Assembly: GCA_001724265.1 (NCBI GenBank)
Contig: MEDY01000068.1
Coordinates: forward strand, 1-64,000
From: Rhizaria sp. SCN 62-66
Lineage: Eukaryota
Reading direction: 5' to 3'
DNA: 64,000 nucleotides
Made by a program: the position numbers and the translations under genes. The notes under the pieces were generated by a model, which saw only the letters and a program-made list of their open reading frames with translations, did not search any database and was not told where the DNA came from. Below, in pieces: positions 2,687 to 41,880 of this stretch (positions are counted from its first letter, which is position 1; each line of letters begins with the position of its first letter).

Positions 2687-5309
2687 ATGTACCCGCACCC
2701 GCCCGCCGGTGCGTACCCGCAGTCCCAGCCCCCGCCACGCACGCCTCAGCGCACCCCGGTCCAGCCTCAGCAGCAGCAGCAGCAGCAGCACACTCCCCAA
2801 CAGCAGCCTCAGTACCAGCAGTACCAGCAGCAGCAGCAGCAGCAGCAGCTGCAGCCTTTGCCCCAACACTACCAGCAGCATCAGCAGCAGCAGCAAGGCT
2901 ACCCTCCCCAGCAGCAGTACTATCATCAACAGCAGCCTCAGCAGCAGCAGTACAACGCTGCCCCCGCCGTCTACGGCATGCCCCCGGCCCAGTCCCCCCT
3001 GCGCACCCCTAGCAACAACAACAACAACAATAACCTAAACGTCAACACCAACAACACCACCAGCGGCATCTCCACCACGTCCCGCGCCGCCGGCGCCGCT
3101 CCCAACCCCGGCACTGACCCCGTCACTGCCCAGGCCGCCGCCGCCGGTATTCACGTTGTAAGTACCCCCCTTACATCCCCCACTCACCCCCACTTCAGCA
3201 ACGCCAACAGCGGCACCGGCGGCTACAACACGAACGCGAATGCAGTTGTTTCTTCTTCCTCCAGCAGCGCCAACGCGCAGAACGTCAGCGGCGGCGGCAG
3301 TGGCAGCGGTGACGTCGACCAACACCAAATCCTCCTCGTCCGCGTCAAAAAGCCGGCTACCGCGAACAACAACACCGACAACAGCTCCGTTGACAGCGTG
3401 TCCCGCAGTCGCAGCGTCTCCCAGACTCACCCCCAGCAGCAGCAGCAGCTGCAGCAGACCCCGAGTCACGGCAACGCCAACGCCAGCGAGCACAACAGCG
3501 ACTACAACAACAACAACAACGATACGTCCCTCGTAAACGCCAACGACAACAACAACGACGGCCAGGGCAACGAGAACTGCGTTGAAGACGATGACTTTGT
3601 CGTCCGCAAGCTCAAGGTGTTCCCCGAGCTGATCGGCAAGGGCAAGTTCGGCAACGTCTTTGCCGCGCAGCTCAACGACACCATCGGCACCCTGTACGCC
3701 GTGAAGCGTGTCAAGATGACGTCGGCTATGCCGGAAGCCACGCGTACCAAGTGCTTCAACGAAGTGACGCTGCTGCAGGCGCTGTCACACCCCAATATCG
3801 TCGCCTGTCTTGACGCGTTCTTCGATCGGGACAGCGAGGAGCTCGTTATCGTCCTCGGTACGCAAATATACGAGTTTGAACAGTTTTACTAAATGTGACT
3901 CTGCTGTTGTGCTTAATATCGTCAAACTAGCTCAATTTTGAATACCACTATGTAATGATGATAACTTAACGCATATATCTTAAATCAATAATCACATGAC
4001 TTTATCTTTGTGCTTTATTCGTTCCGTACATTATTTTGTTTGCTTCACCGCACATCAACAGAGATGGTTGAGGGTGGCGACCTCAAGGAGCTGATCCGCG
4101 AAATGCGCAGCAACCGGCGCAAGTTCACCGAGAAGCGTGTGTGGATGATTCTCGAGTCCATGGCCGCCGCTCTGGGCTACATGCACTCGCAGCGCATCCT
4201 ACACCGTGACCTCAAGTCCGGCAATGTCCTTCTCGGCCGCGACGCTCGGTACGTCAGAACAAAGCCACACTTATCCAATCGCGAGAATAGTAAAATTTAT
4301 TGTGATATACTGTGTTTTCAAATTATAATATTAAAAAAATATTGTGCTTCATACCTCACTTAGAGACCTCGGTGTGAATATCTGCATTTCTTCTTTTTTT
4401 CGGTCTCCACCCTTGCTTCCGCGCGCACGCAGCGTCAAGATCGCCGACTTCGGTCTGGGCCGCCTGGTCGAGGGCGACGGCACCTTTGCCGCGGCCTCCA
4501 AGGTCGGCACGCCGCTGTACATGCCGCCCGAGATCCTCCGCGGCGAGCGCTACGGCCCCAAAGCCGACGTCTACAGCTTCGGCTGTGTCATGTACGAGGT
4601 GTGCCTGTTCGTGACGCCGTTCGACCAGACTGCCTCGGGGGCCAAGATCACGCTCATGCAACTCTTCGATCTGATCAAGGCGGGCCGGTTCCCGCCGATC
4701 ACGCCCCACAACACCGGCTACAGCCCGAAGCTCTGCGCGCTCATCATGCGGATGCTGGCCATGAACCCGGCGGACCGGCCGAGCATGGCTGAGCTGCAGG
4801 CGATCGCTGGCGAAGAGGTGGTTGCGCGCAAGAAGGCGGTCGACGCAGCCAAGGCCGCCGCGCTCGCTCAGCAGCAGCAGCAGCAGGCTCAGCTACAGCA
4901 GCAGCAGTATGGTAACATCAACCTCACCGTGAACGCCAACGCTAACTACGCCGCCGCCGCCGCCGCCGCCGCTGCTGCTGCTGCCGCCAGTCCGGCGCCT
5001 GTGCCTGCGCCGGTGGTGCGGCTGAGCAGCGAGGAGAAGGCGCGGATCCGACAATCTGAGCTCGGCGCGAGCAAGCGCAACAACGTCCTCGGCGCTAACA
5101 ACAATCTCGCTGATAACCACGGCAATGTGGGCGTGGTGGCCAGTGCCAAGGGTGAGGTTGTGATGGGCAAGGCGATCGACGGGCTTGCGTATAACAACAA
5201 CGCGGTTGCGGGGAGCAACTTCCAGCAGCAGCAACAGTTGTTGCAGCAACAGCAGCAGCAGCAGAGGCTGGTTGATGGGATGCGGGGGATGAATCTTCAC
5301 CAGCAGTGA
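2687..5309 (+). CDS. NIMA-related (NEK family) Ser/Thr kinase with polyQ/polyN N-terminus, 3 exons, ~744 aa
   Basis: Exons 2687-3857, 4062-4248, 4433-5309. Motifs IGKGKFGNV, YAVKRV, EVTLLQALSHPNIV, LEMVEGGDL, HRDLKSGNV, DFG, VGTPLYMPPE, ADVYSFGCVMYE are NEK-like (closest in style to NEK6/7/2). Confidence 0.88.
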
Positions 5310-5831
5310 GTGAATGAATAATGTGTTTCTGTATATATCTCTTTGCTTTATCCGTTTGAGTGGGAAATTATCTTGTTTCGGTGTATAGTTTGCTCTTAAT
5401 TATTACACGCTTGAGTTTTTAACTCGAGTTTTTAACTCCATCTGTGAGTTTCTGTGTCTTGGTTTCCTATCATCTACCCATGTTTGGACTGACAACGCTA
5501 TTCGCTCTAGCCACTTGGGCCTTCGTCTGCTGTCTGTTTGAAGAGACTGTGTGGATGCGAATGATCGTTAGATTGAATAAAATGAGCACCCTTGTACGAT
5601 TAACTTGATATTGGATCACCTGCGAAATTCAATGTTTTGAATGATTAACTAAGGTCGTCAAATACGTATCTGAAATTTTCCACTCACCACACGCGCTTGA
5701 CTATTGCTCCCACGACTTTTCATCGACTCTACAGCAGCACAAGTAGCTTCACTGCAACTGTCTGTACACGCATAGATAGACATAGACATTGGTAATTCTT
5801 TGGAAAATCTTTTTTTTATAAACACTCTGAT

Positions 5832-6626
5832 ATGAGCTCGGCACTGCCTCAACAACAGCAGGGGCAACCGCCGCCTCCGCAAAGCCAATTCTACCAACAG
5901 CAACAGCAACAGCAACAGCAGCACACCAGCCTTGATCCCTCGTACAACGGCCCTGCTGCCCCTACGCACGACCAGCAACAGCAGCAGCACAGCGGCAGTG
6001 CTGTTTTGCACGAGCACAGTGTGATCTCATCGCGGATCACGGCGATTGAGCGAAACATCTTGTGTCTCGTCACTGCTCAGAGGCACCTTGGCCGTTCCCT
6101 CAAAAAGTTATCTAACTCAGTTGCATTCAACGCCACAATCACCAACAGCACTAACAAGAGTGCGAGCAGTGCTGTTGAGGGGGGTGCTGCTGCGTCTAAT
6201 GGGGGGTCGAGCAAGTCCAAGTACTCGAAGAGTTCTCGCGGTCGCCACAGTGACGACCACGATGACAGCGTCAGCAACAGCAACAGCAGCGACGACGGCG
6301 GCGATGACGGCGACGATGACAGCAACACGGATTGCAGCAGCAGTACTCGTCCCGCTAACAACAACAACACTCACACGGCTGACATCGGTGACACCAGTGA
6401 GTTCGCGAGTGCCTTGTCCTCCCTCGAAGTGACCGTTAGCGCCCACGCCTCGGCCCTCGCAACCCTCACCTCGGCCGCTGCTGCCGCGGCCGCCTCCGCC
6501 GCCGCCAGCCACAAGGCCGCCGCGGCTGCCAGGGCCCAGAGTGAAGCCACTCTGGCTGCGCTAGCGGAGACTGTGACAGCGCAAAACGCACGCCTCCTTG
6601 CTCTTGAGTCGCTACTCTTCACCTCC

Positions 6627-6691
<65 letters not shown>

Positions 6692-8009
6692 CGCTAATGC
6701 GAATCTTAATGCCAATCCGAGTGGCAATAGCGATTCTGGCGCTAGCGGTGGCGATATGTCGCTTGCGCAACAGCAGCTTCACCACAGCACGAGCAACGGA
6801 AACGCCAACAACACTGCGCCTAACAGTGGTGGCAACAATGGCAACGGTTTCTATAGCGTTGTGCTGGACAACAGCGACGGCACCGGTGGCGGCCTAACTT
6901 TGCTGCACGGCCCAGACGGCTCGAGCACGGCCGTGAGCAATGGCAGCGGCAGCGGCAACGGCAGCGGCAGCGGCAGTGATGTCAGTGCCAACGGCAGTGA
7001 TGCCGCGGCTGCCGCGAACAACAGCGTACTCGTCACTGTTCTCTCCTTCTTTGGGTACTCAAGCCTCACGGAAGCCCTGGGTTCCCCGCTGCTGTATAGC
7101 TTAGTCGCAGGTGTTCTATTCCTCGTCGGGACTGTCTTGACTTGTATCACGTCGTTGAGGCGTTATTTCAGTGGCAACTCGTATATGACCTCAACGACAA
7201 CAACGATCAATAGCAGCGTGAACGCCAACAGCTTGAATACGGGCGACACTGGCAGCTACAACATCGCCAACATGAACGCTAACATGAACTTCAACCTGAA
7301 TAATAACAATAATAATGCTGCTAATCCCAATAATGACAACAGCGCGAACCAACTACAGCTGCAGCAGCAGCAGCAGCATAATGCAAACACGGGCAATAGT
7401 CGTACAAGTAGTAGCACCGTTGCCAATGTGCTGTCCCCCTTAGCCTACAACAAGGGCGCCCTGTTGGGCAGTCTAAGTACTTCCGTCGGACTAAGTGGCA
7501 CCTCGGGCTCAAATGTAAGTGGCGCGGCTGGCGGCTCCTCGGCTGTGAACGCCGCGACTGTGGGAAGGCTTGTATCGAAGGGCATTGGTGCCGTGCTGCA
7601 AGCAAACAACATCAACAACAATAACACCAATGACAACACCAACACCAACATCAACATCAACAACGCCCGTAACACCAATGATGCCAATCCTAACAACAAC
7701 AATAACTCCGTCAATGCGAGTGCTAATGCTGCTAGCGTGGGCGTTCATCATATCGCCGCGCCCCCGACCGCTAGTGTGGCCATGGGCGGTGCTGTCGGTG
7801 GGGGCGCCAGCGGCAACAACCGCCTTTTGGCGTTGGTGACGTCAGGTGCAGTGCCGCTGCCTGGCTCAACCATCAGCAACAACGCCAACGTTGGTGGCAC
7901 CTCTGCGCTTAATACGTCGAATGTGGGTGCTGTTAATGCTGGCAATGTGAATAATAGCAAGAAGAAGGTTGCGAATGTTGTGTATCGCAGCAACAAGCTC
8001 ACAAAGTAA
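5832..8009 (+). CDS. uncharacterised intronless low-complexity (Q/N/S/A/G) protein with coiled coils and a probable TM helix, 725 aa
   Basis: Long ATG-to-TAA ORF with triplet repeats held in frame. Amphipathic segments (SRITAIERNIL, LAETVTAQNARLLALESL) and hydrophobic PLLYSLVAGVLFLVGTVLTCI near 7085-7150. Confidence 0.7.
6627..6692 (+). repeat. (AAC)22 coding microsatellite (poly-Asn)
   Basis: Perfect AAC run read directly from the sequence. Confidence 0.95.
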
Positions 8010-8488
8010 CTCTTCGCACAAGCGAGTTAACATAGCATTCTACTTTTTACTTGATTGATACTACTTAGTCAATATATACCTACATATCGCAGCACGTACG
8101 TGTGCTGATTTATTTGAATAACCACGCATACACTTTGATTCACCTTCTTATGTGCCTGCAAACTATCGACAAACTCACACGTCTGGTTGGGTGAGAGTTT
8201 ATGAGATATCTCAACCATATCGCTGTATTGCGTAAATATAAACATAAATATCACTAAAGCTCGTCGTGTGCGTGTTATTATCGCCTCTATTTCTATATAA
8301 CATCTTAAACTCAACAAAGACACATTGTACACGCAAGTCACGCTGCAAGGAGCGGCGTGAGTATGTTAACAACAGAAACTGTCTCAGTCCTGTGTTTCGC
8401 TTCTATATCCCGCTATCCCGCTTTCCCACCGTAAATCCGTAGGTAGAAACGACGCTCGGTAGATATAAATCGAAAGCCCCATCGTAAA

Positions 8489-8581
8489 TCAATCCCTCTT
8501 CCTCACGTCGACCACGGTCACCGCCGCGCCGCTAATACTCCCGCTCTTATTCTTCCGCGCAGAGCCGCCCCCGCAGCAGCG

Positions 8582-8612
<31 letters not shown>

Positions 8613-11600
8613 CACAGCGACTGCACCACGCGGTACAAAACGAAGAAAATGACGCCCCAGATGAGCAGGACGTCCGCCCCCCACCACTGCCAGCCCTCCC
8701 AGCCCTCGTCCCGCGGCACGAGCACGCCGACACCGTCGCCGAGCCCGCCGCAGCCGTAGCCAAGCGCGCCGACTCCAGGGCTCGCGCCGCGGCCGGGGGC
8801 GGCTCCCGCGGCGTCGGCGCCACGCGCACAGCCCAGCAGCGGGTCCATATGGGCGCCGTCTAAGGGGGTACTTACACTGTTGAGGGCGGCGGCGAGCGCG
8901 CCGGCGCCCGGCTCGGTGGCGCCCTGTTTATCGTAGTAGTTAACGGTCGATATACCCGTCGCGGACTGGGTGAACACAGTCAGCGGGGGCACGTTCTGCT
9001 GCTTCGTCGCGTCCGCAACAGTGGACTTAAGGTAAGCCGCACGGGCGCGCCTACGAGATGAGAGAAAACAAAAACAAAAATCAGTATAAAGTTAGCAACA
9101 GAATCACCTCAAAACGGACAGATACCAGCATAGATCATTGCGAATAAAACTAAAATGTGGCAATAACAGATAAAATATACATGTTTCCAATAATATAATC
9201 GTTCAAGTCTAAGTATCAACAATCAATCATCTCAAACTGTCTCTTTTGTGTAGTTTTGTGGTGGCATGAATCGTACCTAGCGTCGAGGTGCGAGTACGCC
9301 GCGAACTGCACCAAGTCAACGGCCCGAGGCGTGCCGCCAGCCAGCTGCATCGCCCGCTGCACGGCCGCGCCGCGCGCGCGCGTGACCGGATCCTGCGCCG
9401 CCGCCACCAGCGCCGAGAACGCCGCCGCGTAGTGCGGGGCCACTGCGGTGTGTTTATGCAGATACAGCCCGAGCCCAGCGTCCCGCACGCGCTGCGCCAT
9501 GTCAAGCTGGTCGCCGAACATCGGGATACACAGCAGCTGCACGCGGCCGCCTGCCGCCAGCGCTGTTTCGCTCGCGCTGTTGATTCCGCAGTGCGATATG
9601 AAGATGTGCGTGTTCCGGTGTGACAGCACACCGAGCTGGGACGACACCCAGGGCACGGCGCGCAGCGCGCGGGAAGTTAGGCCGCCAGGAAAGGAAGTTA
9701 GGTCGCCGGCACGAGCGGATAAGCCGCGGAACTGAGCCTCAATATCAGCAACATTGTTGTTGCTATTGTTGCTACGGCTCTTAATGAGAGTAAGCGCCTC
9801 GGTGTAAGTGTCGGGGTTACTGAGAATGGAGGTGATCGTCTCTTGCTGCTGCTTATCAGCTTTCCAGAGCAAGCGCAGTCCCTTAGACTTCTTGTGTTGC
9901 TTTTTAGACGCCGCTTGAGTCGTACTTAGATCCATGCCAGAGGCAAGAGCACCGATCAAGATCGAGCGGGTCTGATTGAAGTTAAGCCGTGCAAGGGTAC
10001 CCATACTAATGAAGACAACAGCATCATCATCGTTATTAGTAGCGCTATTGTCGCCGTTGTTGTTGTTGTTGTTGTTGTTGTTGATGATGATGTTATCGTC
10101 AGTGTGTCCCTGATTGAACCACTCCAAATCCTCTTGAGATAACAACTGATCCTTCGTATAAGCAGACCTAGCATTGGTATTGGCACTACTGGCCGAGGAA
10201 TCTAAGGGGGTACTTAGACTAAGCTGTGTAAGTGCTTGCTGGTCCTGTGCAGAGATGCAAGGACCCACTAAATGCACATGAGGAGGCACAGGCCTACGAA
10301 AAGCAACAACAACAAAACAAAAACGCAATTATATGCACAAGAAAATATCATTAGAAACCAAACATAGTTATGACATATGTCTATCTTGATCAAAAATGAC
10401 ATAATATAAATTAATTTTAAAATAGCGATATATAAGGCGTCAAATCCTTGTTTTGGAGAGCTTACCGCGGCGACTCGAGCCCCCAGGCCGTGTTCTGGAT
10501 CACCATCACACCGGTCTGCGCCCGCAGTAGGTCCACGGGCACAGTCAGCGCCGGACTGGCCGTGGCGCGCGCCTGGTTCAGACTAGCGCCGAAGCGGGCC
10601 GTGACGAGCGCGGAGACGAGGAGCCGCAACGGGGGGCCCACCACGCGTTCCACGAGTGCCGCGTACCCGCTGCCCAATGAATGCAGCGAATGCGGGTCGC
10701 GAAACATCATCGGCACGGCGTCGGTCGGCGGCAGCGTGCGCGGGGACAGCACGTAGAGCAGGTCCGCGTTGTTCAGAACGAGGGGGATGTCGAAATAATG
10801 GGCGATGTCGGTGCCGGAACTCGTCATGATGTCATTCACTAGGATATCGATCGGGTAACGCATGAGATTACTCGTGGGGTCAAGCGTTCCAACAGCAGCA
10901 GAAGCAACAGCAGCGCTAGCCGTATTGTTCTTGTGATCCTTGTGATTGTTGTTGCTGTTGTTGTAATAGTGGTGGAAAGGAGTTTGTTGGAGAATTGCGT
11001 GTAATGCGGTGAACATACACGGGTTAGTGCTGTAAATCCAGTTAAAAACAAGCGTGGATGACGTCGCGGCGTCAGCTTCGGCGACAGCAGCAGCAATCAT
11101 GCGTTTGAAGTCATCAGACTCCTCCTTACACTCGCCAGTGACAACAAGCTCAACCCTACAAAAATCCGCGGTTTAAGACAAAGATAGTATCATATAAGAA
11201 CAGCGTTTGGATATGAGATGCTGATTTTAATAAAGTGCCTTGACGTGTTAGTTTGTCAATATAAACTCAATTTTAGTCCTATAGCTGTAATTTAGGGGCT
11301 AAATGAAAGCAAGGTGTGTGCTTGCATGCACTCGCACGGAGACAAGTTCTAAGCATCATAACAGAGTCAAATCAAAATGATACTTTGCATTTTAATAGAC
11401 TGTGTAGTCTTCTTTGTTATAAACTTACTGCGGATGTTTGTGCTTGCGGACATAAGCCTCCGCGGCGGCGGCGGTGGTGACCGTGGCGCGGTGTCCGCGG
11501 CGCACTGCCTCCTCGGCCTGCGCCAGCAGAGGGTTAATGTGCCCCGGAAGCGGGATAGAGTGAAACATAATGTGCAATGGCCGGTCTGCGGTCGCGGAAG

Positions 11601-11709
11601 CGGTGCTAGCACAGCAGATAGCAAGAGCGAGCATGAGCAGCTGAAGCAGGAGCACCGGCCGCGGCTGCGCGGCAGACGTCACGCTCTGCGGTCCGCCGAG
11701 ACCGCGCAT
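8489..11709 (-). CDS. UDP-glycosyltransferase (GT1/UGT family), signal peptide and C-terminal TM, 4 exons, ~849 aa
   Basis: Exons 11709-11429, 11155-10466, 10293-9277, 9050-8489 splice in frame. PLPGHINP (catalytic His), RGHRATV, ESPRPVPPHVHLVGP, FISMGT and the UGT signature WVSSQLGVLSH..FISHCGINS..IPMFGDQ are present. Confidence 0.9.
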
Positions 11710-12177
11710 TCTACAGCCATACAACAAGTGCACGGGGTGAACAAATGAGATATAAGTTTGAACTGGCAATTAAACATGTATCATCTGGGTCTTGATGTGT
11801 GTGACGGATTATGGAGTGCGATAGAGACATGAAGTTTATCGCAGTCGTCGCCCCAGTCTGATCGAACTCGGACTAAAAGGATTACTTCGCCCGAGTGCCA
11901 ACGTTTTTCTCCAACGTCTCTCATGGTTAGTCTGCCGGGTGCTGATTCAAAATACCCCTACTCGCGACGATTATGCGTTCTTGTCACATCGTTGTTACGT
12001 GATATTACACGCATATTCGATCTGTCTGCCATGTCTTCTTGCATATTTTCACTTTAAAATCCCCTCAATCCCCGCGCAACTTCCCCAACTATCCCCCTCT
12101 TCCCCGTCCCCAGCCCCCCCTACCCGACCCAACCAGCCCTCCGTCCGCGCGCTCTCAGCTGCCTCCCCGCCCCCCGC

Positions 12178-14915
12178 ATGAACACCTTTGCGGCGCCTAA
12201 GACGCGCCGTCCCTCTGCGGGCCCCGTCCGCGCCTCCCCGGCCCTCTCGGGCCCCGCGGCCGCCGCGGCCGTCGCCGGCATGCGCGAAGCCCCCGTTTTG
12301 CCGACCCTCGAGGAGCTGATTCAGAAGCAGGACTTCACCGGCGCAGTCACTCTGCTCCAGTTCCAGCAGCAGGCGGGCGAGGGCGGCCCGCTTGCCGCGC
12401 ACTGGCTTGCCTACGCGTGCTTTCACCTCGGTGACTACAAGCGCGCGCTTGACACCTACCGCAAGCTGCTCCAGGTCCGTCTCATGCCTCCTCATATATC
12501 TCTACAATGCAACGCACATCGCGCCTTCTGCGAAATTTTTTGCTTACATCGCAATGTTTTTTGTTGTTTTATACTATATTCTTTAAATGTACATTCGTAA
12601 ATGTCTATATACCCAAGATATCTCTGTTTGTGTCGTCAGAAACCAACTCATGACCGTTTTTTATTTTCTTGTTGCTCTTTGCTCACTTTGCTTCTGCCTC
12701 TGCTGCCCCGCCCGCGCAGGACGACATCGACAACAGCGACTACCAGCTCTACTCGGCGTGCTGCCTGTACTACCTGGGCCAGTACCCTGAGGCCGTGGCC
12801 GCCGCCCGGAAGTGCACCTCGGGCGGCCCTTCGCGCTCCCGCCTCCGCAATCGCGTGTTGATGCACTGCGCGCACAAGCTCAACAACACGGCGCTGCTCG
12901 ACGAAAGCCAGGCCGCTGTGGCCGGGGCCGCGGCGCAGAACTCGGCGCACGACGCGCTTGCCATTGCGGCCCTCCAGTTTATGCGCTGTCAGTACCAGGA
13001 GGCGTCGGACGAGTACCAGCGCATCCTCAAGGAGAACATGTACGTCAACTACTCCGAAGTATACACCTCAACAATATTGAACACATGGAGTGCTTGATTT
13101 GATATAGAAATATGTATTGGTGTATTTGTGCTATATTCTCACATTTTGTATGTTTCGCAACGTTGTACAATTTATCACAGGGATTGCGACGCTGTCAATA
13201 TGTACATCGCCCTGTGCTTGTACAAGCTCGACCACTTCCGTATTTCCCTCGACTTCGTGTCCAAGTACCTCTCCAAGTTCCCTGACTCGGCCTCCGCGCT
13301 CAACCTCCGCGCGTGCAACCACTTCCGCGTCTTCGACGGACCTCGCGCCGACGCCGACTTGCAGCTGCTCGCCGATAAGCTCCAGTCGTCGGCGCACGCG
13401 TTCGGCCGCGAGCTTGTCGAGCACAACCTCGTCGTCTTCCGCGGCGGTCAGGACGCGGTCAAGGTGCTGCCCCCGCTGCTGGATGTCGTGCCTGAGGCGC
13501 GCTTCAACCTCACCGTACGTTAACCCACTAATAACGATGATTTGAAGCCATATATGACGTGCGATAACAAAATAACATGATGTAGTGTAGTATATTTCCA
13601 ACTCTATGTTATGTTAAAATAATTGGTTTGTTTTGAGTTTATATATGCCTTCAAAACTTTAATGTGAATATGAGTGAACTTCGCAACGCAACGAAACCTC
13701 ATGGTTGTTATTCTACGTCACGATGCTTTCTTGCTTAGGTGCACCACCTCAAGGCGGGCGAGCTCGAGGACGCGTTGGCGCTGGTGAAGAACATGCAGCC
13801 GACCACTCCCCAGGAGTTTGTCATTAAGGCTGTCGCCTACGCTGCCATCGGCGTTGCCACTGACGTACGTCCACACGCTACAAACCAAAACAAAAAAACG
13901 TGGTCGCTCATCACATATATCTTCTTCTGCCAAACTGAATTTCAACATCAACATTTATATAACAATCAATCATCTTATATTAATTTATTTTCACGTTCAT
14001 AAGTTAATATATATCTCGCCATTTTTTTGTGTTTTTGTTAACTTTCCCTCACCAGTCTGCCGAGTTCATCAAGGAGGCCCGCGATCTCTTCACCGCCGTA
14101 GGTTCATCCGACAGCGAACGCGACACCATTCCCGGTCGCAAATGCATGGCACAGTACTACTTCTTCGAGAAACGGTGGGACGACGTGCTGATCTACCTCA
14201 ACTCCATCGCCGAGTACTGCCACACGGACCCTGCGTTTAACTACGACCTGGGCATCGCTCTGGCAGGGAACGGCGAATGGGAAGAGGCCGCCAAGCGGCT
14301 TGCTTTAGTGCAGGAGGGAGACCCGGAGGCGTCGAGCTTCACGTTCCAGGCCTGGCTGGCGCGCGCGCATATCAATAGAGGCGCGCCCGAGGAGGCTTGG
14401 AAGCTCTACCTCAAGCTCGTACGTGTCGCTTTATATCGATATATCACAACAAAGAACGATGTATTCATTTTCAAAATATTAAAACTAGTTAGTATCATGC
14501 TGTAAAAGACATCAATATGTCGTTTTATCGCTAAATACGAACATATATTTCGCTTTTAACGCTCTCTAACGCATTTCTTCGCCGCTTTATGAAACTCGCA
14601 CAGGAGACGCAGGCGAGCGTGGACATGCTGCTGCTGATCGCGACCGACTGCTACCGCGCAGGTCACTTCTACCACGCCTTCAAAGCCTACTCCACCCTGC
14701 ACCGCCTCGACGCCGCGGCCGAGTATTGGGAAGGCAAGCTGGGCGCCGCGGCGGGCACTTTGCAGCTCGTGCTTGCCAACCAGCTGCCCAAGACGGTGAT
14801 GCGTGAGATCGTGTCGGACCTGCGCGCGACGGCGCCGCCAGGAGACTCGGAGACGCACCACGTCGTGCAGACCATGCAGCGCTGGGCCCAGGCCAACGGG
14901 GTCAAGTTTGACTGA
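12178..14915 (+). CDS. TTC26: intraflagellar transport protein IFT56 / TTC26 / DYF-13, 6 exons, ~583 aa
   Basis: Exons 12178-12474, 12720-13039, 13181-13514, 13739-13864, 14056-14418, 14604-14915. Diagnostic stretches DFTGAVTLLQF, FHLGDYKRAL, HNLVVFRGGQDAVKVLPPL, PEARFNL, DTIPGRKCMA, DDVLIYLNSI, YWEGKLGA. Confidence 0.95.
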
Positions 14916-15561
14916 GCGATGAGTTTGAGTATTCTTGTTTTCTAACGCGAGAAAGGGGGGTATTGTTCTTTTTGAAATTTGGGGCCATATGTGTTTTTTA
15001 TACGATATAAAAATGCGATTTTTCGAAATACAATGGTTTTTTTTTGTATAAATTTGTGTTTATAATTTCATTTTTGCAGAATCTATAGTTTGCTAACTTT
15101 GCAGATTCATTTCTGGCGATCGTTTTTTCGATCGGCTGAAAATAATCAGACAGTTACTTGTGTTCTGGGCATCTTTAAAAAGTGTTCATAGCTGGTTTAT
15201 ATACATGTAATGTGAGCAGAAAGAATCTAGCTAGCTCAGATTTATTAAAAAATCAAACATACGAGCTTTTCACGTGCCTATTGTCACCTATTATCCAGTC
15301 GAGCGACAAAATTGTCGCACGTCCATTGTAGCCAACCATGAACACATTTTGGTCAAAAAGAGGTAAATGCACAATCAACACAGCAACACCAATACATAAA
15401 GTAACATTTGCACTTTAAATACCAATGTATTCCTTCATTAATCACTCGAAACAAAAAAAGTCACCTTTCCACGACGAGACGAATTTTTTTGTAAAGTAGT
15501 TCCTTTTCTCTTACTCAAAAGAAGCAGAAGCCATCGTGTTCTTGCGCGCGCACACGCTTAC

Positions 15562-17375: not shown

Positions 17376-18149
17376 ACAGTGCTGTGATTTGTCGACAAAG
17401 CATAGGCAGGGGACAGTCAGAGGAGATGACGATGCGAATGGCGAGAAACAGCGGAGAGAAGTGTGCAAAGGAGGATCAAGACGCAGACGAAAAAAAAAGA
17501 GGATGAGAAGATAAGAGATGTACAGCTAGCTCTTGAGATACATTGAAGTTCACGTGTTGTTGGCATGCTTGCGGTGCAAGGTTGAACCGGAGGTCAAGGT
17601 CGACGCGACCGACGAGCACCATGCACATTTCACGCCCAATACCCCACTCGCCAGTCTGCGTGTTGTCAGCGTATGTAACAAAAAGAAAAGAGTCTACATG
17701 ACGTGAAGTACGCGACTAGCTCACTAAATCCCCCTATACTCCGCGTCGTCACTCCACAGTATCATTCGGCGCAAAACTCCATCAATCGACGAGAAGGGGC
17801 GATCGTGGTCGTCGAGCGCAGCAGCTGAGTGAGTTCGCAAAAATTGTGTGTGTGGTGGCTTGCTTGCTTATGCACTGTTTTTTTCTCGTCCAATCAGGTG
17901 GGCCCCTCAATTTTTGCATTGACCCGGCGTGCTTTTCAAAACTGATGATATCGCTGCATTTACGACCGCTCAGCAATGCACGGTTGAGCACAGATGAATT
18001 TCATTTTTATATCAAGCTGTACTTAAATTCACGCAACAGTTTCGGCCATTTATACGGCAGGATATCTCGTTTCAAAATTCCACCCTTGACCTCATCGAGT
18101 CGCATCCTCTCTTATCATATGCTTTGCCCAACAGCCTTCCCCTCTCCCG

Positions 18150-33000: not shown

Positions 33001-36000
33001 AGCGTGACGGTCTGGCCACCGCCGGAGGGGCCGTTGTCGGGCGAAATGGTCAACAGAGTGGGCGCGGCGTAGTTGTACACGAGCGTGTTGGACACCTGGC
33101 CGGCGACGGTGACCTGCACGACGTGGCCACGGGAGTAGAACACGGGGGTCAGGCAGATGATCTGGACGTGGCTGTGGCTCTGGACAGCGCACGTCAGGTT
33201 GCCGAGCGCAACCGAGACGGTGAACGGCGTGTTGACCGTGCCAAAGTTAGAGCCGGCGATCGTGATGGCCGAGCCCGTCGTGGGGCCGTTCTGCGGCGTA
33301 ATCGTCGTCAACACAGGCGGCAAGTACGAGAACGTCGACAGCGACGAAATGAAGCCGTTCTGAGTGCTGACTTGCGCGTACACGTTGGCGCCCTCACCGT
33401 CGGGCAGCTTGCAGATGATCTTGGTGTGCGTCCACGTCTGAATCGCGCAGTTGGTGTTGACGTTGATCGACGACACGTTGCGGGCGAAATCAACGGAACC
33501 AACCGCGGCGGCGAACGACTCACCGGTGATGGTGACAAGCACGTTGGCGTTGGTGGCCCACGTCGTCGCCGTGGTGGGCTCGAACGACAGCAGCACAGGG
33601 TACTGGTAGGACCAGGCGAAGTAGGTCGGGGTGGCGTAGTCGGTCACTCTCATGACGACCCAGGCCAGGCCCATGCCGGGAGGAGTGGTGCACACGACCT
33701 GCGTGTGGGACCACGAGCCGGCGACGGCGGTGCACACGCCGATCTGCGACTCGGTTCCGGTGAACCTGAAGTTGTCGAGAAAGAAAAAACAAAGAAAAAA
33801 CAAACGAATTAGAGAAGATCATTACGTATATCAATGATGCATATGCGAATGAAAGACAAGAGCTTGCGCAAGCGACGAAGAAACGTACGCAGAAGCGCCC
33901 TCGGCACGTTCGTAGATCTGGACGGTGCCGCGCAAGAGCACGTTACCGAACGACACACCAGTAATGGTCAGCGGGTCGCCACCGGACGTGGGGAGCACAG
34001 ACGGGGACACGTTCTGGATCACCGGCGCACCGTAGTTGTAGCCCGTGAAATTACCCGACTGGCCGTTTGTGGTGACGGTGACGACTTGGTTGATGCCGTT
34101 ACCGGCGGGCAGCGTGCACTGGATCTGAGAATGATTGAACTTGTTCGCCAGAGGAGGGCAGTCGGCGCCGTTGATGGTCACAGTGCCCTAGGATCGTCAA
34201 GGGAAAGAGAAAGGCAAGAGGAAAATAACAAACCATGAGTGTGGCGAGAGATTTGATTGGCGCAATGTCAGGAAAGAAAACATGCAACTTGCAACATTTC
34301 ATTTGTTGAAGTTCGGAAAGTTACAGCGTATGGGAACAAAGACGTACCTGAGTGTAGAAGTTGGAGCCCGTGATAGTGACCGTGGAGCCACCGGCCGTGG
34401 CGTAGTTCAGCGGCAAGATGGACGTCACCGAGGGCGCCTGGTATGAGTACAGAACAGTGGCAGACGACGACGAGTCGGCAGTGGACACACCAGTGACTAA
34501 AAAAAAGAAGAAAAAAGAACAACACAACAAAAACACAAAATATAATTGGGTCCTCCTATTCACGATAACAAAATAAATCAGCATGGTTCATTAAACAGTG
34601 CGATCATGACTTTCGCTCACAATAACAGCGATGCAGAGAAAACGACGTACCGACGACCTCGACGATGAGGTTGGCACCAGAGCCGGCGGGCATAGTGCAG
34701 ATGAGCTGCGTGTGCGAGGGGTTGCCCGTGGCGTTCTTGGTCGGACAGACGACGCCACCGATACGCGCAAAGGGCGACACACCGAAGTTGGTACCCGTGA
34801 TGGTGACGTCATTGCCGCCGATCGTGGAGCCCGAGAGCGGGGAGGCGCTGGTGAGCGTGGGCGCGCCGTAGGTGAAATCCACCGAGTTGGACTCGTGGCT
34901 ACCGGACATAATCATCACGGGCACAGTGCCTTCACCGGCGGGCATCGAACACACGACCTGCGTGTGGCTCGCCGAGCCGCCTGTGACGGCCGTGGAGCAC
35001 ACGTTGCCACCCACGAGAGCCGAGGGCGACGTGCCGAACGAGGTACCCGTGATGGTGAGCAAGTACCCACCCTGCGTGGTCGTGGACGACGACGAGATGG
35101 ACGAGATAACGGGGTATGCGTAGCTGAACTGCGTGCTCGCAGTGACCGAGTAGCCACCGGCGTCGACGCGGATCGGCACAGAGCCCTGGCCGGCAGGAGT
35201 CTGGCACTGGATGCTCGTGTGCGCCGTGTAGATGATCTGCGCGCACGCAGTGGCGCCGACATAGGCGACGGGGGTGGTCACGCCGAAGTTGGTACCCGTG
35301 ATGAGCAGCCACGTGCCACCCTGTGTGGGACCCGTGACGGTACCGGTGACGTTGTCGCGCAGCACGACCGAGGTGATCGTGGGCGGCAGGTAGGAGATCT
35401 GGCGTGAGTTGGACTCGTACGTCGTGCCACCGGCCGCGTTGCTCATGTACACGATGATACCAGAGCCCTGTCCAGACGGGGGCTTGAACAGAATCACAGT
35501 GTGGTTCCACGTTGAGATGCGGGCATCGTTGTACGCATACGCGGTGTTGTTAAAGTACACCTGGCACGTAGCCGAGAGAACACCGAAGTTGGCACCAGCG
35601 AGCGTGATCGTCGTGGTACTGGTATCCGTGGGGATCTGCGAAGGCGTGACCGTGGACAGCGAGGGCGTCGCGTAGCTAAACAGCGAGTTGGTCGCAAACT
35701 TGCCCGTGCGCGCAGTAACGCGGATCGTGCGCGACGCACCGTAGCCGGGCGGCGTCGTGCAGATGATCTGCGTGTGCGACCACGATGTGACCGCGCACGT
35801 GTTCCCGTCCAGAGTCACCGCGGAGCCAGTGCCCGACGTGTCGAACGACGTGCCCGTGATGGTGATCGACGTGCCGCCACTCGTGACACCCGTGAGCGGC
35901 GACACGGACGTGATGGTCGGCGACGCGTACGAGAACAGGAGCATACCACTGTCACCAGCGGGGGTTTGCACGTACACATTGAGGTTGTCACCGGAGCCGA

Positions 36001-38308
36001 CGGGCAGGGTGAAATAAACGTTGGTGTGCGACTGCGACGTGGCAGGGGTGGAAGCGCCGTTGAACATCACCGACGCACCGGAGAGACCAAAACTAGCGCC
36101 GGTGATGGTCATGCCGATGCCGCCGCCGGTGGGGCCAGTGGCGGGGGACAACGAGCTCACAGAGGGGCCGTCGTAGGAAAAGGCGAAAGAGCCCGTGCTG
36201 CTCTGACCACCGACAGTGACCAAGATAGCGTGGTTCTTACCCGTACCGACAGGGATCAAGCAGAGAATCTGGGTGTGCGTGAAGCCAGTTCCCGTGGGGG
36301 CGCAATTCATGGTGCCGATACGCACGAGACCCGTGATGCCGAACGAAGTACCCGTGATGGTCATCGTGCCACCACCGGACGTCGGCGAGTTCAAGGGCGT
36401 CACTGCAGTGATCACGGGCGCGTTGTAGTTGAACACAAGCGACGCCGACGTTGTTGTCGACCGGTCGAGCACCGTCACCTTGACTGGCAACGCGGTACCC
36501 ATGCCTGCGGCGACGGTACACAGGATCTGGACGTGTGTCACGGTCGATGCGGTACACGCGACGTTGTTAATCGTGGCGTAACCAGACACTCCGAAGTTAA
36601 TACCAGTGATGGTCATCACGGAGCCACCGGAGGTGGAGCCGAAGTTGTTGCTCAACGACGTGATCGAAGGTGGATCATAGCTGAACTTGTCGGTCGCAGT
36701 AACGGTGCGCGTGCCAGCCGTGGCGGACAGCGCGAGGTTCGTCCCTTCGCCGGCGGGAATCTTACAGATGATCACGGTGTTGTTCGCCGACGTGCCGGAA
36801 ATGGTGAGAGGATTCCAGGAACACTCCTTGGGGCCGAGCTGGACCGTGGGCGCGGTGTAGAAGTTATCACCGAGGATCGTGAGGAGATCGCCACCGGCCG
36901 TGGCCTTAGCAGCCGCGGACCACGACGCGATCGACGGCGCGCCGTAGTCGTACGATGTCTGCACCGTGCGGTTGTACGCCGTGGTGACGCGGATTGCAAC
37001 AGTACCCATGTTGGACGGCATGGTACACGTGATCACCGTGTGGTTATGTGCACCGACGACGGGGCAGTCCGTGTCCTGCACACGCACCGTCGCGCCAGAG
37101 CTGTAGAAGTTAGTGCCCGTGATGGTGATGGCGTAGCCACCGATGGTGCGGCCGCCTGCGGGAGTCACACTGGTGATGGTCGGCGCGGAGTACGGCATCA
37201 TACGGTTGTCGGTCGACTGGCCACCGACAGTGAAACGCATCGTGACTGACGACGCGCCACCGGCCGGGGCAGTGAAGACGATCTTGCTGTGGTCGACGGA
37301 GGTCATCGCGACGGTCTGGTCGTTAAACGACAGAGTGGTGCCACCCTGGGAAGAGATGACGGACGTCAAACCGGCTTGACCGAAGTTCTGGCCATTGACG
37401 GTGACGACTGCGCCCGCAGTGGGGATCTCGGTCGGAGACACGGAGGTGATCACTGGGGGCGAGTAGGAAAACCACTCTGAGTTAGAAATCTTGGCCGACG
37501 TGACGTAGATGACGATCGGGATATTGGTACCAACGCCAGTCGGGACCGTCATCACGGTGCTGGTGCCGTCGGAGGCACTTCCCGCGCCAGCCGTGAAGTT
37601 GGTGCTGTTGTAGCCATAGCCCCAAATGACACGCATCGTCGATTCGGCCGGAAAATGGTTCACACCGCTGATGGTGAGGGGGTAGTTACCCGTGGTGTTG
37701 CCCGTGGAAGGCGAGATTGAACTGATCGAAGGCAGCAAGCAGATGTCGATGTAGTTGACGCAGCAGTCACCATAATCGAGGCAGCTACCACCACAGTAGC
37801 AGCCGTTGGGGACACGGGAAGACTTGGTGCCTAGCACGCACTCGGGACGGCAGATGGAGTTGTAGATCTTAAGATGGGTCTCTGCGTTGGCGGTGTTAAC
37901 AGCCATATTACGAAGGAAGGTGTTCTTGTTACCGGAAGAGAGGGAGGTGTAGTCAGCAAGAACAGCATCGCGGGTCTTGCAAAAAGAACGGAAAATGTTG
38001 GCACCCTTGACCTGCGTGCAGTAGTTTGCTGTGTTGGTGTTGCCGGTACCCTTAGTGAAGGTATCGGCGGCCTGACAGTTGGCCAAGGTACACGCTTCGT
38101 AACCAAACGTCTGCGCAGCCGCCGGCGCAACGCCCCACGAGAGCAGGAGCGCGACCGCGAGCAGCAGCAGAGACGACGCGCTTGAGAACAAGCGGCCGCT
38201 CCGACGATTGTGCTGTGTGGTGCTGTGTAGGTGTTGCGGGGGCGCATCAGCTGCCGCGCTGGGAGCTGCGGCAGCAGGGGAAGCTGGACGCCAGAAAGAG
38301 AACAACAT
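21076..38308 (-). CDS. giant cell-surface protein, 15 exons, ~4,961 aa: signal peptide, somatomedin-B-like domain, ~25 IPT/TIG repeats, Cys-rich GCC2/GCC3-type (ephrin-receptor-like) repeats, ~9-TM module, acidic Ser/Gly tail
   Basis: Exons 38308-34651, 34496-34348, 34187-33889, 33765-32865, 32690-30786, 30646-28847, 28672-28202, 28018-27404, 27198-26629, 26446-25979, 25772-25629, 25442-25122, 24973-24458, 24290-21967, 21820-21076 sum to 14,886 nt, in frame. Motifs CYCGGSCLDYGDCCVNY, repeated PxITSVSP..GG..ITITGTNFG, CxxCxxGxY, and LGFLYAGYK..WWEIV..NPY. Confidence 0.9.
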
Positions 38309-38904
38309 GGCGGTGTTGCGCTGTTGTTCCGTCGTCGGCTTCGTGCGCGGCGCGTTCTCGTTCACGCGGGAGTGAGAGCGAGACGAGCGGGGGGCGAGGG
38401 AGAGCAGAGGCTCTGGCGCTGCTGAGAGAGAGGCTGCAAGAGCCAGGACGCGCTGAAAACCCTGGACAGCAGGTCAGGGGGCAGTCCCAAGCAAAAAGAG
38501 AGCCTGAAAACGGGGCTTAGGTCTCGCAGTTAAGAGAAACGCACGCTACGTGCGGCATAAAAGGAGCGGAAAAGGGGGCAAGAGCAGAGTCGTTTAAGAA
38601 GGTGGGGTGACACAGAAAGTCAGCTAAAGCGGTGCATAACGACACCCGTTTCAAACAGGAGCGCACAAAAAGACGAATGATACCCTCAAAAATGGTATAC
38701 TATTATTAACTCGCCCTGTAGTCGACCGCAAAGTTGCCAAGTGAGCCGGCAAAAGCGTCCTGGCAGGTTTGGTTTCTCCCTCTCTCAGTCAGACTGTGAG
38801 CCGGCTTAACTTTCGATCCACCACAAATCGTTTTTGGATTGCTTTGAAGCTAGAGTGAGTGCTCAGGAAAGATCTGCTTTGCGTGCCAACGGCCGTTGAT
38901 TCAA

Positions 38905-39577
38905 ATGGCGACAAAAGAAACGCTTGCTTCTCGCCGCGAGAAGCTTGAGGAAGATTTAAAGCAGACTCAACGTCACATCTATGATGGCGAGGAGGCCTAC
39001 ATTGGTACGCTCTCTCCCAGTGATAATTCCATGACAAAGCACAGTCTCATTCGTTATCCTCCTCTTTATTAGAAACAAAGCGGTATACCCCAATTTCTAT
39101 CGCATAACAATCGCTTGGTATCATTTTCAAGGATGTTTGTTTGGCTTCGCACACAACTCACTTCCCATTCGCGCCTTGCGACTCGCTTTCGCGTTCGCTT
39201 AACTTGCCTCTGTACTGATCTCTTCTTGCACAGCTGAGACGAGCCACTACGGCAACGTCGTCAAGGGCTGGGACACCTACCTGGCCACGACCGACATCAA
39301 GGCCCCCCACAGCTCTCGCAAGCCCAAAGTGAACGACAAGGACCGCGTTTTCACGCTCTCTTCCCCTTCCTACGTCACTGAGGACGACGGTCTCGACGAC
39401 GACGACGACCTCGGCGGCGGCGGCAACGTCGGTGGCAGCCACCACCACGGGTACCTTGACTCGTCCTCGGCAACTGATAAGCACCGCAAGAAGACCACCG
39501 GTGGTGGTGGCGGCAGCGGCGCTGCTGGCGCGGGCAACGCTGGACGGCGGTACAGGGATGACGATCTCTACGATTGA
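38905..39577 (+). CDS. EAF6: NuA4/MYST histone acetyltransferase subunit Eaf6 (MEAF6), 2 exons, ~147 aa
   Basis: Exons 38905-39004 and 39234-39577. RREKLEEDLKQTQRHIYDGEEAYIAETSHYGNVVKGWDTYL...DRVFTLSS matches the Eaf6 signature (IY..E..YL.ET..GNI..GWD.Y...RLFS.SS). Confidence 0.9.
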
Positions 39578-40234
39578 GAGTCCGTTCATATCAACGCTAT
39601 CCGCGTCGGAACGAGCATTTTTGTGCCATTGTGGACTTCTTTTGCACGCTGGCGACTCATATTTCGACATATTGATGTTTTCTGTTTAAGTGTTAAGCAC
39701 AGTTTCTATGTGTTAAGAGGTTACAGCGTTGTCTTGAGAGTGATGCAGCAGCAGCTTGAACAACGACAACATCAATAACTGCAACACACAGCAGCGACAG
39801 CTGCAGAGACGCTTGCTCATCTCAGTGCTGTTGTCTCAGTGACGCTCTGCGAGCGTGTTGCTAATTTTACCGCTACTTAGAACTTATGTTGTCGTTGCAA
39901 TTCTGTATTTCATATCCGCAGGACTTACGTTGCGCATATTAACGTACAACGAGATACTTCACAATCACATCAATATAAAGGCCCTTATGATACGAGCGTG
40001 TTGAGGTGCGGACATAAGACCTAAGATGAAGAGAGAGAGATATCAATCACAGATGTATTGCGTCACACGCGTTAAAAGCTAAATTCGAGAGTATTCAATT
40101 TAATAAAATTTAATAACTGATATTTTTGAGACAGTAAACAACTATATATCGCAATTTGACATGACTAACATGATCCCGCAGAAATAAAGTAAAGCTGCCT
40201 TGAGAAGCAGGCAAGGAAAATCGAATGAAGCAAC

Positions 40235-41880
40235 TTAGGCCTTTCTAGACGCACCCTTAGCCGCAGCGTTGATCGCAGCCACCCATGCCACCGCCCCTCC
40301 ACTTGCATTCACCTTGCCAGCACTATCAGGCGCAGTTGCAGTTGCAGGCAAGAGCAGAGGCCGTGGCACCGTAACTGCGACCGCGGCGGTCGCTTTGCCG
40401 CCGGCAACAGGGACAACGTACGCAATGGGGGCGTCCAGCACGGAAATATCGAACGAGCGCGCACTCGTCGCAATGCTCAACTTGCCGCTGGCCCCCGCTT
40501 CCTTACTAGGGCCGGCGGCGCTCGTGCTCGCGACGGCGGTGCGTAGCGGAGTCACGAAGCCGGCCACAGTTACAGCCTTCACGCCACCAGGACCACTCGC
40601 CGCATGCGCAGCTGCAGTGCTACTGCTGTTGCTGTTGCTGTTGCCGCTGTTGCTGTTGTTCTTCGCGTTCGTGCTGCTTGTGGAGCTATTGTCTGCGGGA
40701 GCGGCTTCTCCAGGTAAACGGACATATGCGAGCACACTTACACCGGCCTTGGAGCCGTCTAAGGGCTCGCTTACATCGTGTAAGGGCGTGATCAGCGCCA
40801 ATGTCCTGGTTTTACGCGACAAAATCTTGAAAAAGTCCCACCTCGCCGTCTTGCTGATCTTGCCCACAGTCACCAAGTACACGCCATCGACGTCTGAAGG
40901 GGTGCTTGGACTGCTGTGCGACACAGGAGGCCCGCCCTTAATGCTCGTGAGCGCAGTGTTGGACGCAGAAGTGACAGTGAGCACGGTAGAGACGAGCGAC
41001 TTAACTTCCGCCTCAGTCTCGGTCTCTACGCTCGCAGGAGCAGACATTGCAGCAACAGTAGAAGTAGCAGCATTAGATGCGCAGTCCACAGCGTCGTCGC
41101 TGTCGCTAGAGCTTCCACTTACGCTCTTCGTGCTACTGTTGTTGTTTGCGCGGGCGTATGCAGTGGCAGCTGCGGCGGCAACGGCGGCCGCAGCCATCTC
41201 AGCCGTCACAGCAAGAGCAACATGTGACGCGTGTCCGCCGGCGACCGCCGCAGCCAAAGTCGACTGCGTCGCGATTAAAGACGTGTGTGAAGCAGGAGCC
41301 GTGGAGAATGACGCGACATTCATCGGGGTATATGATCCAAAGGCCTCCAACTGAGACCGCGACTGCGGATGAGGCGATTGTGATGACACACTGGAACTGC
41401 TGTCGTTCAAGGTGGCACCCGCGGTGCATGTGACGATCGGCGCAATCGCCGGCTTAGCTTTGCTGTTGCTCGATGAGCTCGACGACGATGCGGCTTGCCT
41501 TTCGCTGCCGTTGTTGTTTTCGGCTGCAGCACTGGAGCTGGAGCTGGAACTCGTGGCGGTTTGACTTTGCTCACCCGCCGCGCCCGCAGCGATCGCGTCG
41601 TCGCTTGCAGCAGTGACGAGCAGAGCATACGCGTCAGCCGGTAAGGGTGTAAGTAGCAGGGGGCCTAAGGGGGTCGCCCAATGGGTGTAAGTACCCAGCG
41701 TCGGGGTACTTACATTGTTGAAGTGACTGTGAGAAGGACGGCGACTAGTCGAGGTCGTGGTGCCTACAGCAGCGACCTCAACATCAGCAGCAGCAGCAGC
41801 AGCAGTCGTCGCCGCAGAAACAGCAGTGATCTCAGTGAACGGCGAATCAGCATTGTTCGTACCAGTACTGCTGTTACTGC

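Follow-up and report, generated by a model that had tools for sequence, protein, structure and literature searches.

A dispersed, imperfectly palindromic repeat of about 19 bp in the coding DNA of an uncultured eukaryote

A few bacteria are known to carry selfish palindromic repeats which reside in genes and undergo translation. The Rickettsia palindromic elements (RPEs), bacterial repeats of 100-150 bp, are described as being translated as extra peptide segments where they lie in genes. The REP and REPIN sequences of bacteria are mobilised in trans by RAYT transposases. Miniature transposable elements with inverted repeats (MITEs) and introners measure tens to hundreds of bp and carry target-site duplications, the introners being spliced out, and uptake sequences form inverted pairs behind genes. 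In the literature, REP/REPIN are characterized as very short (20-40 bp) imperfect palindromes of high copy number (PMC3733652), the uptake signal sequences of the Pasteurellaceae and the DNA uptake sequences of the Neisseriaceae (USS/DUS) as exact short words which show a frame bias in genes and occupy poorly conserved positions (PMC2817400), and certain repeats in the organelle genomes of Volvox carteri as selfish hairpin repeats spreading within the DNA of a eukaryote (PMC2670323). Here we analyse 64,000 nucleotides of DNA from Rhizaria sp. SCN 62-66 (contig MEDY01000068.1, positions 1 to 64,000; this whole stretch is called the window), in which a short word with inverted-repeat ends recurs in unrelated genes. 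The word proves to be a dispersed repeat which, inside genes, lies almost always in the same orientation and reading frame. Keyword and sequence searches of the literature revealed no comparable nuclear element in a eukaryote, the sequence search giving two unrelated primer matches.

An initial annotation of the window had described this word as a hairpin motif in genes labelled 'NEK', UGT and 'PDK1'. The five copies of the 9-mer TAAGTACCC on which it relied are indeed present, at 3159-3167 (+), 8866-8874 (-), 10208-10216 (-), 41688-41696 (+) and 41704-41712 (-), and its three hairpins (copies 1 to 3 in Table 1) read as it described them. Pfam gives a protein kinase domain for 'NEK' and 'PDK1' and UDPGT for UGT, but for copy 3 the UGT label is only probable: this copy lies in an open reading frame (ORF; 8492-9091) which, from its membrane-helix-like tail, is probably the last UGT exon. 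Only 0.19 copies of the 9-mer are expected, and none of 100 dinucleotide shuffles reached five; in the amino-acid-preserving codon shuffle proposed with the annotation the expectation is 0.20, and none of 300 within-gene shuffles reached three. The codons used by the motif are rare in the genes of the window, as had been stated (GTA 8% of Val, CTA 6% of Leu, AGT 12% of Ser and TTA 7% of Leu codons), and overlapping or adjacent motif 9-mers take ranks 2, 3, 4 and 10 among all 9-mers of the window. The hexamer GTAAGT itself shows no enrichment: the window has 30, and uniform composition predicts about 31. The single 9-mer has p = 2.5e-6, and the best p values in 40 shuffled replicates have a minimum of 2.8e-6 and a median of 6e-5; corrected for its post hoc choice, the 9-mer alone is of borderline significance. 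Moreover, by our own arithmetic, it is not unusual by chance for 11- or 12-mers to be common to three places in 64 kb. For these two reasons the window alone cannot settle the matter, and the decisive support comes from outside it.

A scan of JGI metagenome contigs with the 18-mer TSTAAGTACCCCCTTASA returned 31 loci. Nineteen of them, with 20 matches and all with different flanks, come from a single sample that also holds the locus of the window; one locus of this sample (L023) is identical to the window around copy 3 (43 of 43 sampled 40-mers). Eighteen of the single-sample contigs have 52-65% GC and ORFs with GC-rich third codon positions (GC3), as in the window, with a codon-frequency correlation of r = 0.83. 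The remaining 12 loci, which are scattered and mostly of low GC, are taken as background, except L012, which looks like DNA of the same organism. A control scan of 185,579 prokaryote species, each represented by one genome (596 Gb in all), gave seven matches, always single, and viral contigs gave no match to the 18-mer pattern. Because of the clustering in a single sample and the near-empty prokaryote and viral controls, we regard the motif as a multi-copy feature of one organism. Our genome-wide statements rest on the window and 18 contigs, together about 131 kb of this organism's DNA, in which 21 distinct sites are found. All 27 of the non-low-complexity 20-mers shared between different contigs in these 131 kb belong to the motif; it is a dispersed repeat of about 19 bp. 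An adapter or library artefact was considered, with regard to common adapter sequences, and rejected in view of the frame and orientation bias described below and of identical contigs in separate studies.

The 21 copies share a conserved block T-S-TAAGTACCCCCTTAGA-C with sharp edges. In their logo, positions 0-18 are conserved and read T, G/C, TAAGTACCCCCTTA, G (20 of 21), A and C (position 18, 17 of 21), with G at position -1 in 12 copies. Its two arms, (G)TSTAAG and CTTASA(C), form inverted repeats round the asymmetric centre TACCCC; the left half reads TSTAAGTAC... and the right half ...CCCTTAGAC. As terminal inverted repeats the arms measure 6-7 bp, and 11 bp in the long form at 41686-41714. 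The annotation had read the stems as co-varying. The G:C/C:G swap between its first two copies is real, but it does not generalise: positions 2/17, at which the search pattern admitted G and C only, are G/G in 11 copies, C/G in nine and G/C in one (Fisher p = 1.0), and the compensatory change expected of a structured RNA is not seen among the 21 copies. G stands at position 2 in 12 copies, 11 of them with a mismatched pair; with G/G in 11 of 21, the commonest form thus has a mismatched stem. The hairpins of copies 1 to 3 are weak, and only the long palindrome reaches -15.8 kcal/mol (Table 1).

With 0, 1, 2, 3 and 4 mismatches to the 19-mer, 16, 5, 2, 4 and 2 copies are found, as compared to none in shuffles at up to three mismatches and 0.5 at four. 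Full elements are often accompanied by half-elements, which are arranged in tandem or inverted, both in the window (41640-41714, 40755-40790, 10213-10232) and at loci L004, L010, L012, L017 and L028; just upstream of copy 2, on the gene strand, there are ACTTACA and CTTAG fragments. Locus L014 (about 4790-4808) has a related palindrome, TCTAAGTG-TC-CACTTAGA, whose arms measure 8 bp and whose centre is different, and [GC]TAAGTG words recur in frame 0 at window positions 7491, 7515, 41122, 40741, 46043 and 60980. These sequences suggest that there may be a wider family built on TSTAAGT arms.

Inside genes the element obeys a strict rule. Among the 14 scan matches in long ORFs, 13 lie in one sense frame, here called frame A (xxT GTA/CTA AGT ACC CCC TTA GAC), the sole antisense match being L014b; with four of the six frames free of stop codons, the binomial p for this distribution is 1.6e-7. 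When the window copy at 10201 is included, 14 of 15 coding copies are sense and in the same frame, which bears out the strand and frame bias that the annotation had proposed to look for. The coding copies specify (V/L)STPLD, and beyond that peptide there is no similarity between them; in the window, the sense copies in long frames read VSTPLT, LSTPLD, VSTPLD and VSTPTL. In those genes in which Pfam domains could be located, the element occupies variable loops or linkers, and one frame serves both sides. At L014 it falls within a PRMT5_TIM match (residues 395-532 against profile positions 69-170, that is 138 residues against 102), with the motif at residue 500; at L021 it stands between TBCC_N and TBCC in a single ORF; and at L009 it lies ahead of the Dus core, the Dus alignment starting after the motif. 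A homologous-protein search with the PRMT5-like ORF of L014 returned only its own cluster, and PDB searches gave no PRMT5 alignment.

The codons show at which level the copies are alike. In about 26,500 codons of inferred coding sequence, the pair GTA-AGT occurs 32 times as compared to 2.0 expected and CTA-AGT 15 times as compared to 1.6, and AGT comes next after one quarter of all GTA codons; the frame A codons GTA/CTA, AGT and TTA each make up 5-14% of the codons of their own amino acid. Of 19 STPL peptides, 18 use AGT ACx CCC TTx or CTT, and the single case with other codons equals the 1.06 expected from composition. A selected peptide would have many spellings whereas STPL has nearly one, which argues for an origin at the DNA level and not for peptide selection. 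The shorter words [GC]TAAGTAC follow the same rule: of 38 in inferred coding ORFs, 28 are in sense frame 0, three in sense frame 1 and seven antisense, and the 28 include 12 partial copies that were not ascertained by the scan.

Outside long reading frames the element takes a different form. All six such copies have perfect stems. Copies with G at position 2 (GTAAGT, mismatched stem) are coding in 12 of 12 cases, whereas those with C (perfect stem) comprise three coding and six non-coding ones (Fisher p = 0.0015). Of the six non-coding copies, four follow the stop codon of a GC3-rich ORF at a distance of 0-20 nt and are antisense to that ORF (p about 9e-6 under generous assumptions). At L011 the TAA stop is itself part of the element, and at L017 and L010 another partial copy contains or adjoins the stop. 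A general 3' signal behind stops was rejected: among the stop-terminated ORF ends listed, only the ascertained ones at L011 and L022 have a copy downstream. At L011, around 2037-2060, a polynucleotide kinase/phosphatase-like ORF ends at a TAA, and coding-looking sequence continues directly behind it in the +1 frame (MFYSKLETPAKAEGFDEVLYVPWEPVF); the cause could be an indel in the assembly, an intron of very small size or a frameshift.

Table 1. Copies and partial copies of the repeat in the window
Feature	Position	Strand	Sequence	Reading	Setting	Hairpin (kcal/mol)
Copy 1	3157..3175	+	TGTAAG-TACCCCC-CTTACA, variant with six C	GTA AGT ACC CCC CTT ACA = VSTPLT	N-terminal low-complexity part of protein kinase gene ('NEK')	-3.9
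Copy 2	10201..10218	-	TCTAAG-TACCCC-CTTAGA, C-type canonical, perfect 6-bp stem	LSTPLD	UGT gene	-6.0
Copy 3	8858..8877	-	G-TGTAAGTACCCCCTTAGA-C (GTGTAAG-TACCCC-CTTAGAC), G-type canonical, internal G/G stem mismatch	VSTPLD	ORF 8492-9091	-4.2
Long palindromic form	41686..41714	-	TGTAAGTACCC, 7-nt spacer, GGGTACTTACA; 11-bp inverted-repeat arms		Linker of second kinase gene ('PDK1')	-15.8
Fragments adjoining the palindrome	41640..41680	- (gene strand)	ACCCCCTTAG, TACTTACA, CCCTTAC			
Degenerate copy	40755..40790	-	CCCTTACA-cga-TGTAAG-cgag-CCCTTAGACGGC; 4 mismatches to the 19-mer		Second kinase gene	
Partial left-half words	7473..7521	+	CTAAGTAC, CTAAGTGG, GTAAGTGG	Frame 0 (LST, LSG, VSG)	Low-complexity ORF 5796-8006	
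Partial left-half word	9922..9929	-	CTAAGTAC	Frame 0 (DLSTTQ)	UGT gene	

The DNA that carries these copies is eukaryotic, and the taxonomic assignment from the protein atlas stops at 'Eukaryota'. The window contains AT-rich introns of 140-250 nt which start with GTAAG or GTACG, contain CTAAC and end with TAG or CAG, and its coding frames combine GC-rich third positions with long N/Q runs. Besides the two protein kinase genes and the UDPGT gene, Pfam recognizes large TIG/Ephrin-receptor-like surface proteins; there is no rRNA, tRNA or Rfam match in the window. Parts of the window are present in 12 public runs of seven studies (bioreactor, wastewater and sludge). Over window positions 2000-12500, the DNA contigs of runs X3 and X4 are identical across the three sites of the element, with no presence/absence polymorphism, and the DNA runs over this interval belong to the same strain (2 base differences in 10.5 kb). 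A minus-strand ORF at 45222-63998 continues uninterrupted for 6,259 codons and runs off the end of the window; Pfam recognizes Sushi, TIG and Ephrin-receptor-like repeats in the last 3,000 codons (45222-54221) and nothing in the rest. In the same metagenome sample, a contig of 45% GC (L030) has a perfect-stem TGTAAG..CTTACA copy at 772-789, located 13 nt upstream of a tRNA-Glu(CTC) gene (803-875); this contig may come from the same organism.

With moderate confidence, we consider the element to be an REP/RPE-like mini-repeat, that is a set of imperfect palindromes of about 19 bp dispersed in the nuclear genome of one uncultured eukaryote, copied as DNA and translated through. Of the options named in the initial annotation, which had proposed a signal overlaid on coding sequence or the footprint of a tiny mobile element, the latter is the closest, and the view that the feature belongs to the DNA and is due neither to protein selection nor to chance has stood. 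The copies would be alike through DNA copying rather than through a selected peptide or RNA helix. They would arise by insertion, presumably mobilised in trans by an enzyme, and in genes the element would be transcribed and translated through, with (V/L)STPLD as its product in variable loops and linkers. Selection, or some property of how the element is copied, would remove other frames and the antisense orientation from coding DNA. Genes would lose antisense or perfect-hairpin copies as well as frames introducing K, R or Y, and copies near the C-terminus or in the 3' untranslated region would be tolerated in any form. Dispersal, sharp edges, the frame and orientation rule, codon identity and frame retention are seen in the copies themselves; insertion and filtering we infer.

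Similar to RPEs, the element forms dispersed palindromes both between genes and in frame inside coding genes, and, with 15 of 15 ORF copies in frame, it displays the RPE trait on the presumption that these are translated. Unlike RPEs, it is only about 19 bp long, belongs to the nuclear genome of a eukaryote that has spliceosomal introns, and holds to one frame though three others are open. With 21 sites in about 131 kb, 19 contigs of one sample and unrelated flanks, it is a high-copy dispersed imperfect palindrome in the sense used for both REPs and RPEs. Its resemblance to REP/REPIN lies in the very short imperfect palindrome, the many copies and the absence of a target duplication, mobilisation in trans being our proposal here; REPs, unlike this element, are extragenic, and among the Pfam-scanned ORFs there is no HUH or RAYT-like gene. 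The element also differs from the Volvox carteri organelle repeats in that it lies in nuclear coding sequence.

Several points speak against such a mini-repeat. No mobilising enzyme was found: the 38 ORFs from the loci and the main ORFs of the window that were scanned with Pfam have host-type domains only, with no transposase or reverse-transcriptase domain among them, and the 131 kb contain neither a longer parent element with the same ends nor an autonomous relative. The flanks of the 21 copies hold no information and show no target-site duplication, and without such a duplication the copies may have replaced resident sequence under drive instead of being inserted. To our knowledge, a unit of 19 bp is shorter than any known mobile element. 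Stop codons do not explain the single-frame rule, three other frames being open; these three frames all bring in K or R, and tolerance of the peptide may be the cause of the rule. Furthermore, the search pattern fixed 16 of 18 bases and allowed only G or C at the two variable positions, so that the diversity of the copies and the G-versus-C split are biased by ascertainment. Coding status was judged from ORF length, GC3 and Pfam rather than from transcripts, and the gene models are ORF-based. That the 18 contigs and the window represent one organism is deduced from the shared sample, the codon-usage correlation and a shared second motif.

The alternative that survives best is that the word was built in place and not inserted, either by a sequence-specific drive or as a selected nucleic-acid signal. 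In the case of a drive, point mutation or short-patch conversion would create the word wherever it is tolerated, as for the DNA uptake sequences in Haemophilus and Neisseria, and frame A would win as S/T/P-rich linkers are already close to VSTPLD; in the case of a signal, the word would be kept as the binding site of a protein or RNA. We regard these two versions, taken jointly, as unlikely. Like USS/DUS, the element is an exact short word that shows a reading-frame bias in genes and prefers positions of poor conservation; uptake sequences share this syndrome, in hundreds of copies and in what is described as thousands of words (PMC2817400). A drive would also agree with the lack of a target duplication and of a parent element and with the fixed place of copies behind stop codons, and the over-representation of a second word, RAAGTYARGCCGC, in both orientations suggests a genome-wide process at the level of words. 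However, uptake sequences have 9-12 bases and stem from mutation and uptake bias in competent bacteria, whereas the element has about 19 bp and is eukaryotic, and 19 exact bases are a long target for mutation-driven build-up. We know of no such uptake or drive process in eukaryotes. Partial copies cluster in tandem or inverted beside full ones, which fits better with local insertion or duplication, and copies lie in stretches that are extra to Pfam profiles, as in the PRMT5_TIM match. Finally, the frames of uptake sequences are reported to go with preferred codons (PMC2817400), whereas frame A uses rare ones.

The second word is found 20 times as compared to 0.33 expected from local shuffles, in both orientations relative to the ORFs. 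Five copies are located in the window (9674-9684, 9979-9989, 6890-6900, 38802-38812 and 42228-42238) and 15 more in loci L003-L028; sometimes they stand in tandem at a distance of about 21-24 nt or form an inverted pair. Read on one strand, RAAGTYARGCCGC gives GGC YTR ACT T (G-L-T), again with rare Leu codons.

We find it improbable that the copies are footprints or internally deleted remnants of a larger element with ends TGTAAGTACCCC...GGGGTACTTA(C/G)A. Such an element could have been a DNA transposon, or else an introner that generates introns and provides GTAAGT and TTAG with its ends. Like MITEs and introners, the element is short and non-autonomous, has inverted ends and lands in genes, and it contains GTAAGT and a pyrimidine run with TTAG; unlike them, it has a 19-bp unit without duplication, and the frame is kept through it. 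Of the marks of cut-and-paste elements, terminal inverted repeats are thus present and a target-site duplication is absent from all 21 copies. The kinase-gene copy at 41686-41714 retains both 11-bp arms. The left half equals a strong 5' splice site, similar to the starts of the real introns, the right half ends in a pyrimidine run and TTAG, and the coding copies are sense and mostly GT..AG, as expected had the parent needed splicing. Yet the same asymmetric junction, with a long left part and a 7-nt right part, is exact at 21 sites, whereas repair footprints normally vary. The 131 kb contain no full-length element and no intron with such ends, and the six real introns that were read are AT-rich and unrelated. 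A TA-target model with palindromic context fails as well: a Tc1-like insertion (TA target, 10-nt insert, palindromic target GTSTASAC) was rejected since the empty target is almost absent, the empty site T-S-TAGAC occurring 0 times in frame A and three times in the whole coding set.

Very improbable is a micro-element acting at the RNA level, such as an ultra-short intron or a stretch that is removed or bypassed in frame. The G-type copies, all of them coding, do have GT and AG 16 nt apart; in addition, in-frame TAG codons in conserved genes (see below) are a hint of unusual decoding or processing; in three of the six, a GT lies exactly 18 nt ahead of the TAG's end. Removal of 16 nt would shift the frame, yet the frame is identical on both sides of the element and Pfam matches span or flank the site (L014, L021), which excludes a 16-nt GT..AG intron; one ORF in one frame runs through 14 of 15 coding copies. 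Cryptic GT..AG splicing, which the annotation had suggested to look for, is thereby excluded as a frame-changing event, and in-frame removal of 18 nt at the element may still occur. Longer GT..AG readings of 41 nt (copy 1) and 49 nt (copy 4) were rejected: they are not multiples of 3 and the ORFs continue in the original frame. The C-type coding copies lack the GT, and an ultra-short spliceosomal intron was discarded in view of nine of 21 copies that start with CT (TCTAAG) and one that ends with AC. Neither the strict frame bias nor the absence of copies from the TAA-closed frame is expected of a sequence that is removed before translation. A contig of run X6, labelled 'RNA? probably DNA', spans 3071-3199 without a gap, leaving copy 1 uninterrupted; in the poly(A) RNA run X9, no contig bridges a copy, and one contig begins within copy 1, at 3170.

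A short linear peptide motif, for instance a proline-directed phosphorylation or docking site (V/L)STPLD, would explain the same peptide in disordered linkers of many unrelated proteins, but both this and pure chance are close to refuted, as the STPL peptides share rare codons in 18 of 19 cases with other spellings at the level of composition, copies also occur outside genes, and 19 contigs in one sample, set against seven matches in 596 Gb of prokaryote genomes, exclude chance.

The in-frame TAG codons are an observation in their own right. Six of them join long ORFs in the same frame and in GC-rich coding context, one in the window (42401-42403, minus strand) and the others at L009, L005, L006, L028 and L004; three or four of the six lie in Q/N-rich runs. 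In the kinase gene of the window, Pkinase profile positions 93-156 are matched before the TAG and 151-258 after it. In the Dus gene of L009, a block LAPMVRV, which we take to be the Dus N-terminal motif, precedes the TAG and the Pfam Dus match follows it. On this sequence basis the organism may use UAG as a sense codon, perhaps for Gln, or read through it. Such use would be rare, because the giant ORF 45222-63998 has no TAG. Precedents for a reassignment of UAG only are mentioned in the source consulted (PMC5304391).

The copies at stop codons, the single-frame rule and the genome-wide spread go beyond what the initial annotation had described. The element already offers a practical marker for binning contigs of this organism in metagenomes. 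As a tentative outlook, and as a whole with rather little confidence, we suggest that it could be a self-propagating word of about 19 bp which colonises coding DNA in a single orientation and frame and marks the DNA behind stops. Such a word would suggest that a mechanism of copying or drive is coupled to transcription or translation, as a nuclear equivalent of REP/RAYT or of the drive behind uptake sequences; a different possibility is an in-frame micro-element dealt with at the RNA level, and the same organism may decode UAG as a sense codon. If confirmed, the element would be shorter than any other dispersed repeat for which a spread through coding DNA has been shown, and it would represent a route by which proteins gain loop and linker residues. 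The rule of one frame and one orientation, together with the two forms, the mismatched stem in genes and the perfect stem behind stop codons, would then raise the question of how gene expression is sensed by DNA repeats, or filters them.

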